Origin: a virus
Lineage: Duplodnaviria > Caudoviricetes
Reading direction: 5' to 3' (one strand)
Virus record (IMG/VR): IMGVR_UViG_3300032216_002106
Location: 12,059 to 76,058 of that record
DNA length: 64,000 nt
The notes beneath the pieces were generated by a model. It was given only the letters and a program-made list of their open reading frames with translations, was not told the DNA's origin and did not search any database. The position numbers were made by a program, and so were the translations under genes. Of the stretch, positions 7,240 to 25,335 are shown in pieces. Position 1 is the first letter of the stretch, and each line of letters starts with the position of its first letter.

Positions 7240-7353
7240 TTAAGCAAACTGTGATTTGATTTTGTTTAAAGCCCAAGTAATAGCAATAGCACTTACCGCA
7301 AGCAATAAGTCTTTGCAGATAGAACAGACAATAGGAAACAAGAAGTCGAACAT
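7240..7353 (-). CDS. 37-aa membrane peptide missed by the ORF track (MFDFLFPIVCSICKDLLLAVSAIAITWALNKIKSQFA)
   Basis: ATG about 21 nt downstream of motif A copy 1; fills the gap before the Gp157-like gene. Confidence 0.6.
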   Translation of the reverse strand: MFDFLFPIVCSICKDLLLAVSAIAITWALNKIKSQFA

Positions 7354-7374
7354 TAGAGTGAATGATGGATGGGC

Positions 7375-7400
7375 AGCAGTTTAACGTCTTGCTTAGGACG
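7375..7400 (-). ncRNA. Motif A pseudoknot leader, copy 1
   Basis: CGUC-CUAAGCAA-GACG-UUAAAC-UGCU. Confidence 0.7.
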
Positions 7401-7407
7401 ATAGCTA

Positions 7408-7662
7408 CTATTTATTTACTAGTGCAGCAAGTTCTTCTGCAGTGCCTACCTTAGTTATTGACAGCTCTTGACTAAAACAACTTCTTGAAGATACCAATAA
7501 ATCGTATACAACATTGTCGTAGTTAACACGAGCCTTACGTGTACCTGTGTAATTGTTTATTAATGAATGTAATTTCCATTCTTCTGTATGTAATTGGTCT
7601 TTTAATTTGTTAATCTTTTGTTTTTGATTAAACAATTGACGAAGCGTTGGTGATTTAGCCAT
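7408..7662 (-). CDS. Hypothetical protein (probable start MAKSPTLRQ)
   Basis: Start overlaps the stop of the SWIM gene. Confidence 0.55.
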   Translation of the reverse strand: MAKSPTLRQLFNQKQKINKLKDQLHTEEWKLHSLINNYTGTRKARVNYDNVVYDLLVSSRSCFSQELSITKVGTAEELAALVNK

Positions 7663-8596
7663 TGGTTGTTTTATAAGAAAGTTGAGGAAGGCTTGTGCCT
7701 GGAAATGGAACAAACCCCGCACTCAACATAGCGTCAAACAGATCCCATGCATCATCTGCAGTGTAGTGTTCCTGTGGTTTGTACGTACGCCAGTGAGACA
7801 TAGGTGCCATAGATCCTGACTTGGTATACAAGACAAGGAACCGACCCTTTGACTTATGGTCTTCTGGTGGAGCGTACCACCAAGCACATGCGTTATCAGG
7901 GGCAGACCCCCTGTACTGATCACGTACTTCAGAACGTTTTACCAATAGCTCACGATACTTCTTGAACCAAGTCAAGTGAATGCACCATGGCTTATAGCCT
8001 TGGATCTCTTGCTGGAACTCAGATAGATTTGTCAATTGCTGCTGGAATGAACCACAAGAACAATAAGGTTCTTTAACCTTTTGTTGTGCAGTAACTTCTT
8101 CTAAATCAGAGTCCATGTCTACTTCCTCATCAGAATCATAGAATCCTTCTGGTGCAATCAAGTGACCAAGATCTGTATGCTCACTTTGCAGCATAGCTTT
8201 AAGCTTGTCTTTACTCTTAAGGTAAATGAACTTATCAATCCATTCCCTTTGTAGTAACGCTTGACCAGTCTTGTGGCTCAGCTGATGTTGATAGTGCCAA
8301 CCTTTTAACATTACGTAAGAGTTATTATGCCAGATACCAGGACCTCTATAGTTAGGACCAAGGTATGCAAAAAAGTTTTTAAGACGACCAGTAAATTGCT
8401 GGTACGCATTAATCACATCTTGCCTAGGCACTAATAGCTCATTGCCATCTTGATGTACTACAACAATATTGTTATCACGTAGATAGATCCCGCTTACAGT
8501 GGTTTCATCAAACTCTGGTAGTGCACGTTTAATGTTGCTAATAGAATAGATTTGTTTTTGTGCAGAATTAAATTGGTCTTGAATTAGATTGTTCAT
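7655..8596 (-). CDS. SWIM zinc-finger protein
   Basis: YCSCGSF...PWCIHL (CxC-Xn-CxH). Confidence 0.7.
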   Translation of the reverse strand: MNNLIQDQFNSAQKQIYSISNIKRALPEFDETTVSGIYLRDNNIVVVHQDGNELLVPRQDVINAYQQFTGRLKNFFAYLGPNYRGPGIWHNNSYVMLKGWHYQHQLSHKTGQALLQREWIDKFIYLKSKDKLKAMLQSEHTDLGHLIAPEGFYDSDEEVDMDSDLEEVTAQQKVKEPYCSCGSFQQQLTNLSEFQQEIQGYKPWCIHLTWFKKYRELLVKRSEVRDQYRGSAPDNACAWWYAPPEDHKSKGRFLVLYTKSGSMAPMSHWRTYKPQEHYTADDAWDLFDAMLSAGFVPFPGTSLPQLSYKTTNG

Positions 8597-8617
8597 TAGT
8601 TAGAATTGAGTTGGTGA

Positions 8618-8833
8618 TTAGATGAACAGGTCGTCCTGCTCTGCCGGAATTTTAGCAGAGCTAGGGGCAGAGTCATAGGCTCTCTTACCAATTTTTAACA
8701 AACCATAGGCAAGCATCCCCCAGGTAATAGGGTTAGCAAGTGATGCCGCAAGGAATGTTCCCCCTACGGCATAGGGTGCCGTGTGTTTGATAGCAGCCTT
8801 TAGTTTTGTGTTCATAGTGGTAGCATTGAGCAA
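8618..8833 (-). CDS. Small hydrophobic protein
   Basis: APYAVGGTFLAASLANPITWGMLAYGLL. Confidence 0.5.
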   Translation of the reverse strand: MLNATTMNTKLKAAIKHTAPYAVGGTFLAASLANPITWGMLAYGLLKIGKRAYDSAPSSAKIPAEQDDLFI

Positions 8834-8847
8834 AGCTGTTCAGACTT

Positions 8848-9108
8848 ATGGAAATCAAAGTCATGCCCTTAAGCAAATTAGAACTTGACCCAGGGTTAGC
8901 TGATTTGTTTTGGAAAGAAAAAGTACAACGAGAGATTAACGAAAATACCTCAGTCAATGAACTAAGGCAGTACGCATCTTTGTTGTTGTCACTTGCAGTA
9001 CAACGTCAAGGAATAATAAAAGGACTTGCAAAAGAATTGCTCACTATCAAACATCTATTGATAGATGATAGTGAGCTTGCAAATCCTGAGATTACACCAG
9101 AGAGTTAG
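8848..9108 (+). CDS. Hypothetical protein (lone plus-strand gene in the early arm)
   Basis: 86-aa helical ORF filling the gap between minus-strand genes. Confidence 0.55.
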   Translation: MEIKVMPLSKLELDPGLADLFWKEKVQREINENTSVNELRQYASLLLSLAVQRQGIIKGLAKELLTIKHLLIDDSELANPEITPES

Positions 9109-10175
9109 ATGAGTGAATCGTCTTCTCCAGTTACAGGATCCCTGGCACTAGGCAAAGCAGTTATGTCAACTTCTTTGGTGTTACGTAGTTCAGGTAGTAT
9201 CTCTACTCCTTCTCGTATTCCATAAGCACCACCAAGCTTTGCAGCATCCTGCTTAGCATGTTGATTGATATAGTCCTGGAACATTACTTGATATTTCCAA
9301 GTTGATTCTCGATCTGCATCAGGAATACTCATTGCATTTAATGATTCGACTGCTGCTTCTTGTGTGCTGTAATCAGGGATATCAAACCCTTCAATAGCAC
9401 ATATCTCAACGTTATTAGCGCCGCGCATGTCATTAACAAGCTGAGGTGTAAATACTGTTGTTGCATAGAACTTTTCATTGAATGCCAATGGAATCTCTGA
9501 GTCAAGTGCTTTGCTCAAGCACTTAGACATTTCTTTTTCATACATTTTAATCTTTTCAGCTGCATCAGTACCATTAAGTCCTTTCAAGGTAAGGACCATA
9601 GGCAGCTTATGTGCCCGTTGATTTTCTGTAGTAAGAATAAAAATTAAGTACTTGGTACGTACACTGTACTTACGTTTGTACATTTCGCCTTTACTGTTAG
9701 CAAGATCAGCAGCAACCTTGTCATTATCCCAAAGAGACTTGACATCATCATTATCAAACGTGCCAATCGTTTGCCTCATTCCCGTAGTTTCCTCAACCAT
9801 AAGGGGAGAACGTAGAAGGACTTGAACTCTAGGCTGAGTGAAATTGAGTCCTTCTTCGATTGAAGTATTGGGAGCCATACCAAAAGTTTGCTTGTAGTTC
9901 CAGATAACTGAACCTTTAGCAAATTGATCTTCAGTTGCGCTCCATCCGCAAGTATCAAGGTCTGAGTTCCGCACGAACCAACCTCTTGTTTTAGACTTGT
10001 TGAGGGGTTGGATCGTGACAAAGTTTTGATAGCCCGAAACAAATTCTTTAGATTGAAATAGCGCAAAAGATTCAATGCCACGTGTTGTAATAGCAGAGGA
10101 TTTTTTCATAGCCATGGTCGGAGTTAATTTCGTAGTAGGTGAGTTGGTCGTGGTGTCAAACAAAGTGCTAGTCAT
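9105..10175 (-). CDS. DUF5895-like protein next to SSB (possible recombination/annealing factor)
   Basis: HKLPMVLTLKG motif recalls cyanobacterial DUF5895; acidic C-terminus; ATG chosen 20 nt after motif A copy 2. Confidence 0.5.
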   Translation of the reverse strand: MTSTLFDTTTNSPTTKLTPTMAMKKSSAITTRGIESFALFQSKEFVSGYQNFVTIQPLNKSKTRGWFVRNSDLDTCGWSATEDQFAKGSVIWNYKQTFGMAPNTSIEEGLNFTQPRVQVLLRSPLMVEETTGMRQTIGTFDNDDVKSLWDNDKVAADLANSKGEMYKRKYSVRTKYLIFILTTENQRAHKLPMVLTLKGLNGTDAAEKIKMYEKEMSKCLSKALDSEIPLAFNEKFYATTVFTPQLVNDMRGANNVEICAIEGFDIPDYSTQEAAVESLNAMSIPDADRESTWKYQVMFQDYINQHAKQDAAKLGGAYGIREGVEILPELRNTKEVDITALPSARDPVTGEDDSLI

Positions 10176-24641: not shown

Positions 24642-24710
24642 GCCACACTCAGTGTGTGGCAATAACTGGACCAGGGTTTGCACCTGGTCACCCGCTTTAA
24701 CGGATCAGTT
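24642..24710 (-). ncRNA. Motif C tRNA-like three-way junction plus GCCACAC hairpin, copy 2
   Basis: P1 AACUG/CAGUU, P3 GACCAGG-UGCAAAC-CCUGGUC, both compensatory relative to copy 1. Confidence 0.7.
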
Positions 24711-24953
24711 GTTGTTAATGTGCTCTTGACGTGCACGTTCTTCAGCCCATCCGTAGAGACCCATGCCTCCTGGAGTTAGTACAAAACCTTCCCGGCCCCA
24801 GCCGGCAACTTGTCCTTCGCTGTTACGAAGAACTATTAAGGTTGTCTTAGCAAGCCGAAGCTTGCCTCCGATTGTTTTTGGTAACCGGGAGCCTTTCCAA
24901 TTAGCTGCAGAGCGCCGCAAAATTGCTTGCTCAGAAGCAGTAAAATTAGACAC
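24705..24953 (-). CDS. Hypothetical basic protein (GTG start, MSNFTASEQ)
   Basis: AGGAG Shine-Dalgarno upstream of the GTG. Confidence 0.6.
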   Translation of the reverse strand: MSNFTASEQAILRRSAANWKGSRLPKTIGGKLRLAKTTLIVLRNSEGQVAGWGREGFVLTPGGMGLYGWAEERARQEHINNN

Positions 24954-24969
24954 AGGAATCTCCTGTTGT

Positions 24970-24994
24970 GCGGTGCCCATCTCCGCTGTAGGCA
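24970..24994 (-). ncRNA. Motif D leader, copy 1
   Basis: UGCCUA-CA-GCGG-AGAUGGGCA-CCGC. Confidence 0.5.
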
Positions 24995-24997
24995 ATA

Positions 24998-25041
24998 CTG
25001 AGTGGGGGATTCGATCCCCCGGCATCACGCCTGGTACTCAG
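24998..25041 (-). ncRNA. Motif C-like tRNA-like junction, copy 3
   Basis: P1 CUGAGU/ACUCAG stacked on GGGGG-AUCGAAU-CCCCC; GGC/GCC hairpin. Confidence 0.6.
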
Positions 25042-25259
25042 AACGGAATATCAGCTTCAACCCAGGTGTGTTCACCTAATTGAAGCATCTCTTGTTCCCA
25101 GTCTTCAAATGTATTCAGGTATTCAAGTGCCTTAGCTTTATTGCTAAACCACTTCTCACACCCTCCAAAATACATTTCAGCAAAACTGGGATAACCTCCT
25201 TCAGACATTTCATCAGGCTTAATACCAACGTAGTACTCAGTTGCGTGTGCGATTGACAT
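25038..25259 (-). CDS. First gene of the early arm, acidic hypothetical protein
   Basis: 73-aa ORF ending EADIPF. Confidence 0.65.
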   Translation of the reverse strand: MSIAHATEYYVGIKPDEMSEGGYPSFAEMYFGGCEKWFSNKAKALEYLNTFEDWEQEMLQLGEHTWVEADIPF

Positions 25260-25274
25260 TTAATCGTGAGCTGT

Positions 25275-25302
25275 GCAGGTGCCCATCTCCTGCGGACTAG
25301 GC
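25275..25302 (-). ncRNA. Motif D leader, copy 2
   Basis: GCCUA-GUCC-GCAGG-AGAUGGGCA-CCUGC. Confidence 0.5.
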
Positions 25303-25304
25303 TG

Positions 25305-25335
25305 TGTCTGCGTTCTTAGGATGCGCAGCCCCCTA
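25305..25335 (-). ncRNA. Motif B leader, copy 4
   Basis: Loop CAUCCUAAGAA. Confidence 0.65.

Follow-up and report, generated by a model that had tools for sequence, protein, structure and literature searches.

Mitochondrial transcripts are punctuated by tRNAs and, in plant mitochondria, by the tRNA-like folds known as t-elements. The promoter-early stem-loops (PeSLs) of T4-type phages join an early promoter to a simple stem-loop. Here we analyse a stretch of 64,000 nt, called the window throughout, which comprises bases 12059-76058 of the 76,058-nt IMG/VR virus record IMGVR_UViG_3300032216_002106 and whose early genes are separated by 17 copies of short structured elements assigned to four families, A to D. 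Family A is a compact pseudoknot that resembles coremin, an exoribonuclease-resistant RNA (xrRNA), and family C resembles the top half of a tRNA; we propose that such elements may punctuate and protect the early message.

Coremin is a small fold that stalls the exoribonuclease Xrn1 through a hairpin, hp1 (GUC/GAC), a YGAD loop and the spacer GUUAAACUAC, of which A16-A20 are essential for stalling (PMC6546385). Pairing of hp1 is required, and the loop, lp1, conforms to YGAD when it has 4 nt or YGNNAD when it has 6; the substitution A20U abolishes stalling, and natural coremin also requires a second hairpin, hp2, and G as the second loop base. Loops of 6-8 nt still stall Xrn1 (PMC10520033), and a laboratory screen yielded xrRNA_WCC, a form of coremin in which loop and spacer make a Watson-Crick pseudoknot (PMC10321173). 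The same two papers describe coremin as halting scanning ribosomes and promoting −1 frameshifting in vitro (PMC10520033, PMC10321173), and neither mentions phages or bacteria.

Positions 1-26,100 of the window, the early arm, hold minus-strand genes that point away from a divergent region at about 25.4-26.2 kb; the structural genes lie on the plus strand in the late arm (26.2-64 kb). Genes of the early arm code for a family-A DNA polymerase, an SSB (single-stranded DNA-binding protein), a GP88-family protein, a PcfJ-like protein of 567 amino acids and a DUF5895 protein. Protein searches identified Synechococcus phage S-EIV1, from a high-arctic lake, as the nearest cultured phage, with 68.9% protein identity in PolA and the same layout of early and late arms; megablast of the early arm against cultured phages gave no match. 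A complete relative, G001 (79,791 nt, with direct terminal repeats), shares 84-94% DNA identity over most of the early arm. The record appears from its sequence to be that of an uncultured S-EIV1-like freshwater cyanophage with a putative cyanobacterial host.

Intergenic elements of the early arm

A scan of the whole record detected eight copies of A, four of B, three of C and two of D, all on the minus strand in intercistronic gaps between window positions 7373 and 25335, and nothing convincing either in the late arm or in the record's remaining 12 kb beyond the window. The search patterns for A (core GCA[T/A]GACG[T/C]TAAACTGC) and B (GGGGGCTGCGCATCCTA) yielded eight and four sites, against 0.53 and 0.10 expected from shuffled sequences; the only other fuzzy matches, at 55465(+) and 57332(-), are mismatched and lie inside coding sequence. 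Read from the divergent region, the order is candidate promoter, B1, D1, gene, C, D2, gene, C, gene, B2, gene, C, gene, an RNA of about 400 nt poor in open reading frames (ORFs), B3, genes, B4, gene, and then A1 to A8. The initial annotation had listed at least 17 copies, with these family counts, on the coding strand, in this promoter-proximal order and with none in the late arm, and the scan and its coordinates agree on each point.

The annotation had also placed the elements between a stop codon closely upstream and an ATG shortly downstream, and the measured distances bear this out. In six of the eight window copies A starts 5-11 nt after the upstream stop codon; for the remaining two the distance is 28 and 42 nt. 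In six copies a script located the nearest ATG 19-29 nt downstream of the end of A; for A1 and A7 it chose a GTG at the 3' end of the knot, where inspection places an ATG about 21 and 25 nt downstream. Three copies of B end 17-23 nt before an ATG and D1 ends 12 nt before one, while C begins 3-6 nt inside the upstream ORF, so that the stop codon lies within its first stem. Among A copies of other contigs, 49 of 110 start 0-9 nt after a stop codon and 41 of 100 end 20-29 nt before a start codon.

The elements, which the annotation had called a toolkit, are not special to this phage. Exact cores are present in more than 116 IMG/VR contig stretches for A, in 47 for B, 47 for C and 61 for D, a relaxed B pattern gives more than 120 matches, and GTDB genomes of many phyla have the A core in more than 119 stretches. 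Several contigs, such as 3300032331_002448, 3300017912_004409 and 3300022200_000053, carry three or four families together. The toolkit is a property of a large group of 40-85-kb uncultured phages; its families are spread over hundreds of uncultured phages, and A also occurs in bacteria. No element matched Rfam 15, whether at the gathering score over the whole window, at E <= 10 over positions 7000-26200 or in a 311-nt piece with two A copies, and on related loci Rfam returned tRNA and Pistol matches only, away from the elements. The UPD-PK families, which Rfam covers, are ruled out by the same result.

Family A has the form C-GUC-[CUnnGCAU]-GAC-G-UUAAAC-UGCn'n'. Its covariation was assessed on 114 sequences collected with a pattern that left the loop and the 3' flank free. 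In stem 2, which joins the loop to the 3' flank, five of the six pairs have changed on both sides and 92.5% of cells are paired, as opposed to 20-51% with slid partners; the observed score was reached by none of 500 shuffles. Because G.U pairs are frequent, the fold exists on the sense strand only. The three-base-pair GUC..GAC stem, equivalent to coremin hp1, is present in all eight window copies, and a fourth stem-1 pair, C-G or U.G, in 103 of 113 sequences; in S-EIV1 this pair is, by eye, U-A or A-U.

The window copies, all on the minus strand, differ in loop, spacer and setting. A1 (22218..22245) reads CGUC-CU-AGGCA-U-GACG-UUAAAC-UGCCU and A2 (19670..19698) has a 9-nt loop. A3 (18989..19016) precedes the PcfJ-like gene; A4 (14293..14320) and A5 (14061..14088) form the 5' and 3' boundaries of a cassette absent from G001, A5 standing before the GP88-family gene; A6 (11064..11091; variant GCAAGACGUAAAACUGC) precedes the SSB gene and A7 (10196..10224; variant GACGCUAAAC) the DUF5895 gene. 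A8 (7373..7400) lies before a 37-codon ORF, and G001 lacks the 252 nt immediately upstream of this copy. S-EIV1 carries six copies of A, two of C and one of D, none of them annotated in its record, with A, C and D at matching places; its A copies include those before the PcfJ-like, GP88, SSB and DUF5895 genes, so that A is retained before these four genes in both phages.

Compared with coremin, A shares the 3-bp hp1 GUC/GAC, C as the first loop base and the spacer GUUAAACU. The A spacer GUUAAACUGC is identical to that of coremin at nine of ten positions, with G-UUAAAC-U common to both; the differing base is a loop-paired G at position 20, one of the essential positions of coremin, and two window copies deviate further (GUAAAACU, GCUAAACU). 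The 8-nt loop falls inside the range in which coremin has been found to work, and the loops CUAAGCAU, CUAGGCAU and CUCAGGCAU fit the lp1 consensus in having Y first and A-U last. Where coremin has hp2, A has a Watson-Crick stem 2 of 5-6 bp, and covariation supports the pairing of its loop bases with the end of the spacer (the canonical lp1 pairing, spacer positions 19-20), as in xrRNA_WCC. In an unbiased scan of viral contigs, exact coremin loops (CGAA, CGNNAT) stood alongside the 8-nt-loop pseudoknot form (185 of 255), so that A and coremin forms make a continuum there. The two differ in setting, coremin being an element of the 3' untranslated regions of eukaryotic RNA viruses (beny-, cucumo- and others) and A lying between genes in DNA phages and bacteria; the relevant nuclease, which is Xrn1 for coremin, would by likeness be RNase J for A. 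We regard A as a putative variant that would work like coremin and do not file it as a member, because the loop consensus fails at the second base and hp2 is lacking.

Other assignments of A were considered and rejected. The Pistol ribozyme, with which it has ACGUUAAA in common, has a different topology, and the Pistol model gives no match to A; a true Pistol is present elsewhere in contig L017. A riboswitch reading of A and B was rejected since the downstream genes are unrelated. The pseudoknot in the gene 32 mRNA of T-even phages is likewise a compact H-type fold 5' of an unstructured leader, and one A copy precedes an SSB gene; that knot, however, serves one gene and one protein ligand, whereas A stands before many unrelated genes in phages and bacteria of many phyla. 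A literature search with the literal A core sequence returned no relevant paper.

Among 50,697 cultured-phage records searched with a 35-nt query, 104 contain A-like sites, 83 of them from Staphylococcus phages. The other hosts are those of Synechococcus, Nostoc, Acaryochloris, Geobacillus, Moorella, Streptococcus, Lactobacillus and Arthrobacter phages, along with two Pseudomonas and two Stenotrophomonas phage records that are included by search match alone. No Escherichia, Klebsiella or Salmonella phage is among the matches, though these are abundant among the records, and 5,426 complete E. coli genomes gave no match. RNase J, a 5'-to-3' exoribonuclease, is present in Firmicutes, cyanobacteria and actinobacteria and is not known from enterobacteria; the host range of A fits a nuclease-blocking role, of which it is no proof. 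S. aureus phage B166 (KP893289 21031-21071; L578:690-730) carries a variant whose stem 1 is swapped (CGAC/GUCG). It follows the head-morphogenesis gene by 8 nt and precedes the genes for scaffold and major capsid proteins, and the swapped-stem form recurs at this spot in about 80 further S. aureus phage records. The B166 record is among those that annotate the site as 'promoter', from a BPROM prediction only.

In Omnitrophota, Planctomycetes, Moorella, Peptococcaceae, Desulfo-/Deltaproteobacteria and Nitrospirae, a conserved small ORF (M..RYMLRPVAHCKEGC...SRA), 18-26 codons long and provided with a strong Shine-Dalgarno sequence, overlaps the A knot with its end. Examples are L196:6849-6926 (-), L230:6024-6101 (+) and L208:7482-7556 (-), and about 40 further GTDB loci show this arrangement. 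The UGA stop of this ORF is the UGA within the knot's GCA-UGA-CG; in some members another UGA, in frame, follows the second Cys. The peptide has no match in Pfam or NCBIfam; genes downstream include those for Rrf2 regulators, hybrid-cluster protein, flavodiiron protein, hemerythrin and CopA. Among the phage contigs L047 (8642-8743), L073, L116 and L097, some have a tRNA gene that begins within 4-10 nt of the knot (L047, where the tRNA was confirmed by Rfam), and others have after A a sequence with the hammerhead hallmarks CUGAUGA...GAAA, by eye only; A thereby adjoins known RNA-processing sites in some contigs. In a CRISPR array of an Oscillatoriaceae metagenome-assembled genome (MAG; L236:216-233, repeat ..CCCTTTCAGGGATTGAAAC), one spacer begins with A-type knot sequence, and therefore at least one filamentous cyanobacterium has met an A-carrying phage.

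A tRNA-like element and its companion folds

Family C was analysed in an alignment of 86 sequences. A 5-bp first stem, which includes the first two bases of the upstream stop codon, is followed by a fixed 4-bp hairpin, by a 7-bp arm with the loop UGCAAAC and then, with no intervening base, by the first stem's 3' strand. The resulting stacked helix has 12 pairs, as in the acceptor/T-arm of tRNA, and both of its stems covary: 98.2% of cells in the alignment are paired, 10 of 16 pairs have changed on both sides, and an invariant U.G pair confines the fold to the sense strand. The loop UGCAAAC is nearly invariant in subtype I and fits the 7-nt T-loop type U-U/G-C-R-A-N-N. Other subtypes have the loops AUCGAAU, UUCGACU and UUCAAUG, on arms such as GGGG-UUCGACU-CCCC and GGGGG-AUCGAAU-CCCCC; subtype II stacks 5 + 5 bp and subtype I 5 + 7 bp, and all subtypes end in N-UUGCC or N-UUACC. 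ARAGORN found no tRNA in the window, and C has no Rfam tRNA match. C is a mimic of the tRNA top half and recognisably tRNA-derived.

Two of the window's three copies belong to subtype I. The one at 24664..24710 (-) has the stem AACUG/CAGUU, to which the upstream UGA contributes its U and G, the hairpin UCCG-UUAAAG-CGGG and a 7-bp arm, GACCAGG/CCUGGUC, closing the loop UGCAAAC and supported by alignment covariation; the second, at 24160..24206 (-), has the stem AAGUA/UACUU and the arm GGCAGGG/CCCUGCC and begins in the upstream TAA stop. The copy at 24997..25040 (-) is of subtype II, with the stem UGAGU/ACUCA, which opens with the three bases of the upstream TGA stop, the hairpin GGC/GCC and the arm GGGGG-AUCGAAU-CCCCC.

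Like the tRNAs and t-elements that punctuate mitochondrial messages, C is a tRNA-like fold between the cistrons of a polycistronic transcript; its acceptor/T-arm stack is of the right length, and it is possibly recognised by RNase P and RNase Z, which would then set the ends of the mRNA. In contrast to t-elements, it is a top half only, of about 45 nt, without a D or anticodon arm; it overlaps a stop codon, invariably precedes a second fold (D or a hairpin) and lies in a phage.

That second fold takes the UUGCC trailer of C as its first strand and is either a hairpin or the pseudoknot D. The hairpin GCCACAC-ACUGA-GUGUGGC at 24643..24661 (-), on the trailer of the first subtype I copy, ends 13 nt before the ATG at 24629, and the hairpin GCCACAC../..GUGUGGC after the second copy, at 24139..24157 (-), stops 14 nt short of the ATG at 24124; comparison of contigs shows covariation in the stem (GCCAC/GUGGC, ACCACCC/GGGUGGU). 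The consensus of D is UGCCC-N3-GCGG-AGAU-GGGCA-CCGC. Its stem 1 covaries between G-C and A-U and between C-G and U-A, and its stem 2 among C-G, U-A and A-U and between G-C and A-U; in the alignment 99.2% of cells are paired and four pairs have changed on both sides. D2 (24968..24994, (-); UGCCU-ACA-GCGG-AGAU-GGGCA-CCGC), which rests on this alignment covariation, begins on the UUGCC trailer of the preceding C, and D1 (25272..25300, (-)) is a long-linker pseudoknot, ..GCCUAGUCC-GCAGG-AGAU-GGGCA-CCUGC, that ends before the ATG at 25259. D2 is followed by a small hairpin, ACAGGA-GAUU-CCUGU (24951..24967, (-)), which includes the Shine-Dalgarno-like AGGAG and the GTG start of the next gene (24953), and whose pairing is kept, by inspection, in other contigs (CACGGAG..CACCGTG, CATGGAG..TCCATG).

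Family B has the form GGGGG-C[N]GCG-CAUCCUA-n-CGC[N']G. The N:N' pair is U-A in 38 sequences, C-G in 44, A-U in 7 and U.G in 4, which supports the hairpin; the proposed pseudoknot stem gains no covariation, since the G-run and CAUCC never vary. B1 (25305..25335, (-)) combines the 5' G-run GGGGG with a hairpin (CUGCG, CAUCCUA.., CGCAG) and was identified by the pattern together with the family covariation at that one stem pair; B2 (24488..24517), B3 (23441..23472) and B4 (22645..22676), on the same strand, were identified by the pattern. In cultured phages and in 401 cyanobacterial genomes, B occurs at chance level.

These folds qualify the initial annotation in several respects. It had described four unrelated families; C and D are not independent, D being built on the 3' trailer of C. 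All three of its C copies were recovered, the one with the GGGGG/CCCCC arm and AUCGAAU loop as a different subtype. Of the three families that it had proposed to form pseudoknots, covariation backs A and D and, in B, the hairpin only. Structural conservation in relatives, which it had named as a test, was found as compensatory changes in the folds of A, C and D and in the B hairpin alone. Its description of the elements as a candidate undescribed system stands as far as Rfam is concerned, even at E <= 10, and has to be tempered for A, the fold of which resembles coremin. Its suggestion that 5' ends are protected, for example against RNase J, gains indirect support from the hp1 stem and spacer that A has in common with coremin and from a host range that, among cultured phages, takes in Firmicutes, cyanobacteria and actinobacteria and leaves out enterobacteria.

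Promoter, large RNA and cassette differences

Upstream of the whole element series lies a single consensus-like promoter, a candidate sigma-70-type early promoter (GTAACA, 17 nt, TATCAT; 25409..25437, (-)) that matches the consensus at nine of twelve positions. Sigma-70 promoters before each element copy were sought and rejected, none being present ahead of any A or B copy. The divergent region also contains, upstream of the candidate promoter, a tandem pair of 39-nt repeats (25517-25615, + coordinates) that are 85% identical and lie 60 nt apart.

The ORF-poor stretch at 23472..23872 (-), between the gene ending at 23870 and B3, has a minimum free energy of −158.9 kcal/mol, which in comparison with shuffled sequences gives z = −6.57. 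Two relatives match it at 93.5-95.5% identity, a level of conservation above that of the adjoining sequence, and its 3' third aligns to the distant contig L043 with compensatory changes (alignment rows L010 and L043). With no Rfam match, it looks like a candidate large structured non-coding RNA.

Against G001, the window contains an extra unit of about 230 nt, composed of A, a leader and a small ORF, with A4 and A5 both aligning to a single G001 copy, and an extra 504-nt unit, composed of C, a hairpin, a 35-codon ORF, B and an 89-codon ORF, whose two flanking C copies align to one G001 C. The junctions of these two indels fall inside the A-A and C-C repeats, and a 252-nt insertion abuts A8. 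Other indels, at 19911-21063 and at 15.6-16.0 kb, are not flanked by repeats. The proposal that repeats mark points of gene variation thus holds for two indels and fails for others. The indel at 19911-21063 is a 1.15-kb insertion with a gene for a 324-aa protein that has no Pfam or PHROG match. Just upstream of A4, at 14322-14356 (-), the direct repeat CAAUGUAGGUUUUAC is present twice; one unit is found before a G001 A copy.

PeSLs invite comparison here, being likewise short repeated intergenic modules that flank small early or accessory genes at differences in gene content between related phages. Unlike PeSLs, the window copies come without a promoter, and the modules are pseudoknots and tRNA mimics selected for RNA pairing.

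The leaders between the A and B knots and the ATG (window 7240-22240, (-)) are mostly CA-rich and without a Shine-Dalgarno sequence, e.g. ..CCACCGCAAUUCAACUC-AUG; AGGAG occurs in the leaders of a minority of genes only, a pattern that fits a cyanobacterial host. Three further intercistronic folds belong to none of the families: a CUGGG/CCCAG stem around the hairpin GUCAG..CUGAC before the gene at 17192 (17193-17255, (-)), the 10-bp hairpin CUAAGGUCAG/CUGGCCUUAG (16752-16826, (-)) and the G+C-rich hairpin CUCCCCCAG..CUGGGGGAG, which has no U-tail (13162-13255, (-)). Zinc-ribbon/helix-turn-helix (HTH) proteins are encoded at 14.8-15.6 kb.

Proposed punctuation and protection of the early message

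We read the folds as intercistronic mRNA modules because they are selected as RNA, keep a fixed register to stop and start codons and have no promoters upstream. The early arm would be transcribed as one or a few long messages, which portable RNA modules would punctuate and stabilise. C most likely recruits host tRNA-processing endonucleases, the favoured cut being by RNase Z or a similar enzyme just after its discriminator-like base. The upstream cistron would then carry the tRNA-like fold as its structured 3' end; the RNA 3' of C, folded from its first bases as D or as the UUGCC hairpin, would become a downstream piece with a sequestered 5' end. Because the stop codon lies in the first stem of C and the next RNA is folded from its first nucleotide, a cut after C would be the most economical. 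A and probably B may do the same job without the tRNA mimic, from a place between the stop and the next start codon, where A, and perhaps B, would halt 5'-to-3' decay by RNase J about 20-30 nt before the start, leaving the ribosome-binding region uncovered. Since the modules recur between many genes, they may therefore also act as homology patches for the gain and loss of cassettes. We judge the chances of this proposal, that the early-arm modules serve mRNA punctuation and end protection with recombination at the repeats, to be evenly balanced, each enzymatic step in it being one that we infer. A bolder form of it we advance tentatively and with some doubt: the coremin fold may be a cross-domain exoribonuclease-resistant RNA that, as a knot of some 28 nt, stops RNase J (and perhaps ribosomes) in DNA phages and bacteria as it does Xrn1 in eukaryotic RNA viruses, which would make A the first natural prokaryotic xrRNA and, in S-EIV1-like cyanophages, part of a modular punctuation code based on tRNA mimics by which one early transcript becomes several messages, each stabilised on its own.

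Several points weigh against this proposal. The second loop base of A is U where coremin requires G, so that the lp1 consensus fails; spacer position 20 is a G paired with the loop where coremin has A; and instead of hp2 the spacer is followed by CA-rich leaders of varying sequence with no conserved hairpin. RNase J exceeded its family cut-off in three of five A-carrying bacterial genomes, the other two being small MAGs. A ribosome terminating 5-11 nt upstream must unwind A at every passage, and in bacteria the small-ORF stop lies inside the knot, so that A may act on translation and not on decay. C ends in the trailer A-UUGCC and lacks the 3' end RCCA, and an RNase P cut on its 5' side would remove the upstream stop codon. 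The pseudoknot of B, while possible, is a conjecture.

The main rival is that the elements are devices of translation, the knots being ribosome barriers or docking sites that insulate cistrons from read-through or from sliding post-termination ribosomes, slow termination, or offer a standby platform some 20-30 nt upstream of starts without a Shine-Dalgarno sequence. The effects of coremin on ribosomes, described in PMC10520033 and PMC10321173, would suit it, as would the fixed register of the elements to both stop and start codons, the many CA-rich leaders without a Shine-Dalgarno sequence after A and B, the UGA of the bacterial small ORF inside knot A and the hairpin after D2, which pairs Shine-Dalgarno-like bases with a start codon. 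We nevertheless think it unlikely. In some phage contigs A comes directly before a tRNA gene or a hammerhead-like sequence, with no start codon next to it, and at several bacterial loci it is followed by a terminator-like hairpin and U-run, by eye, again with no start codon; a role confined to ribosomes does not predict restriction to hosts of RNase J-bearing lineages and offers no obvious function for C.

It is improbable that the repeats are mainly selfish or structural DNA, kept for cassette exchange of the PeSL type and with incidental effects on expression. The A-A and C-C direct repeats that bound two indels relative to G001 are what such an account would expect, and the modules are common to many otherwise different contigs. 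Their covariation, with its G.U pairs, nonetheless points to selection on the RNA fold beyond mere DNA identity; S-EIV1 has retained A ahead of the same four genes although the protein divergence is about 31%, the strand bias and the spacing to stop and start codons are strict, and indels such as that at 19911-21063 lack flanking repeats.

We also see only a slim chance that C is cut on both sides and released to serve as a free decoy that resembles tRNA, for example against tRNA-directed defences of the host or against tRNA-modifying enzymes. Its 7-nt loop still resembles a T-loop and its 12-bp stacked helix the elbow arm of tRNA, and several tRNA-derived subtypes coexist in the phage group; against this, it has neither an anticodon arm nor a CCA end, and it is tied to its flanking cistrons by a first stem that holds the upstream stop and a trailer that starts the next fold.

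Last, signals at the level of DNA, be they promoters for phage or host RNA polymerase or operators for proteins such as the zinc-ribbon/HTH proteins of 14.8-15.6 kb, could account for conserved repeated 25-30-mers upstream of genes, for a −10-like hexamer seen by eye 5-8 nt upstream of A in some other contigs and for the BPROM-based 'promoter' label in S. aureus phages, but are very improbable given compensatory changes that include G.U (A.C on the other strand), which are unexpected for a duplex-DNA site, the same core in phages of unrelated phyla and, inside a translated small ORF, in bacteria, the lack of promoter-like hexamers before the window copies and the recognisably tRNA-derived character of C.

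The present analysis contributes the pair counts for A, C and D, the construction of D on the trailer of C, the contrast in host range among cultured phages and E. coli and the two repeat-bounded indels. In cultured phages such as S-EIV1 and the S. aureus phietaviruses, the elements occupy intervals whose present annotation is empty or reads 'promoter'. Two cultured systems carry A, namely S-EIV1 with Synechococcus PCCC-A2c and the S. aureus phages, which makes the idea of punctuation and end protection directly testable, and a possible use would be as compact 28-nt RNA stabilisers or insulators for expression design in RNase J-bearing bacteria. If the proposal is true, phages borrow host tRNA-processing enzymes through tRNA mimicry to punctuate their operons, as organelles do, and the decay of bacterial and phage mRNA has a counterpart of the viral xrRNAs, a class which within PMC10520033 and PMC10321173 is described only for eukaryotic RNA viruses.

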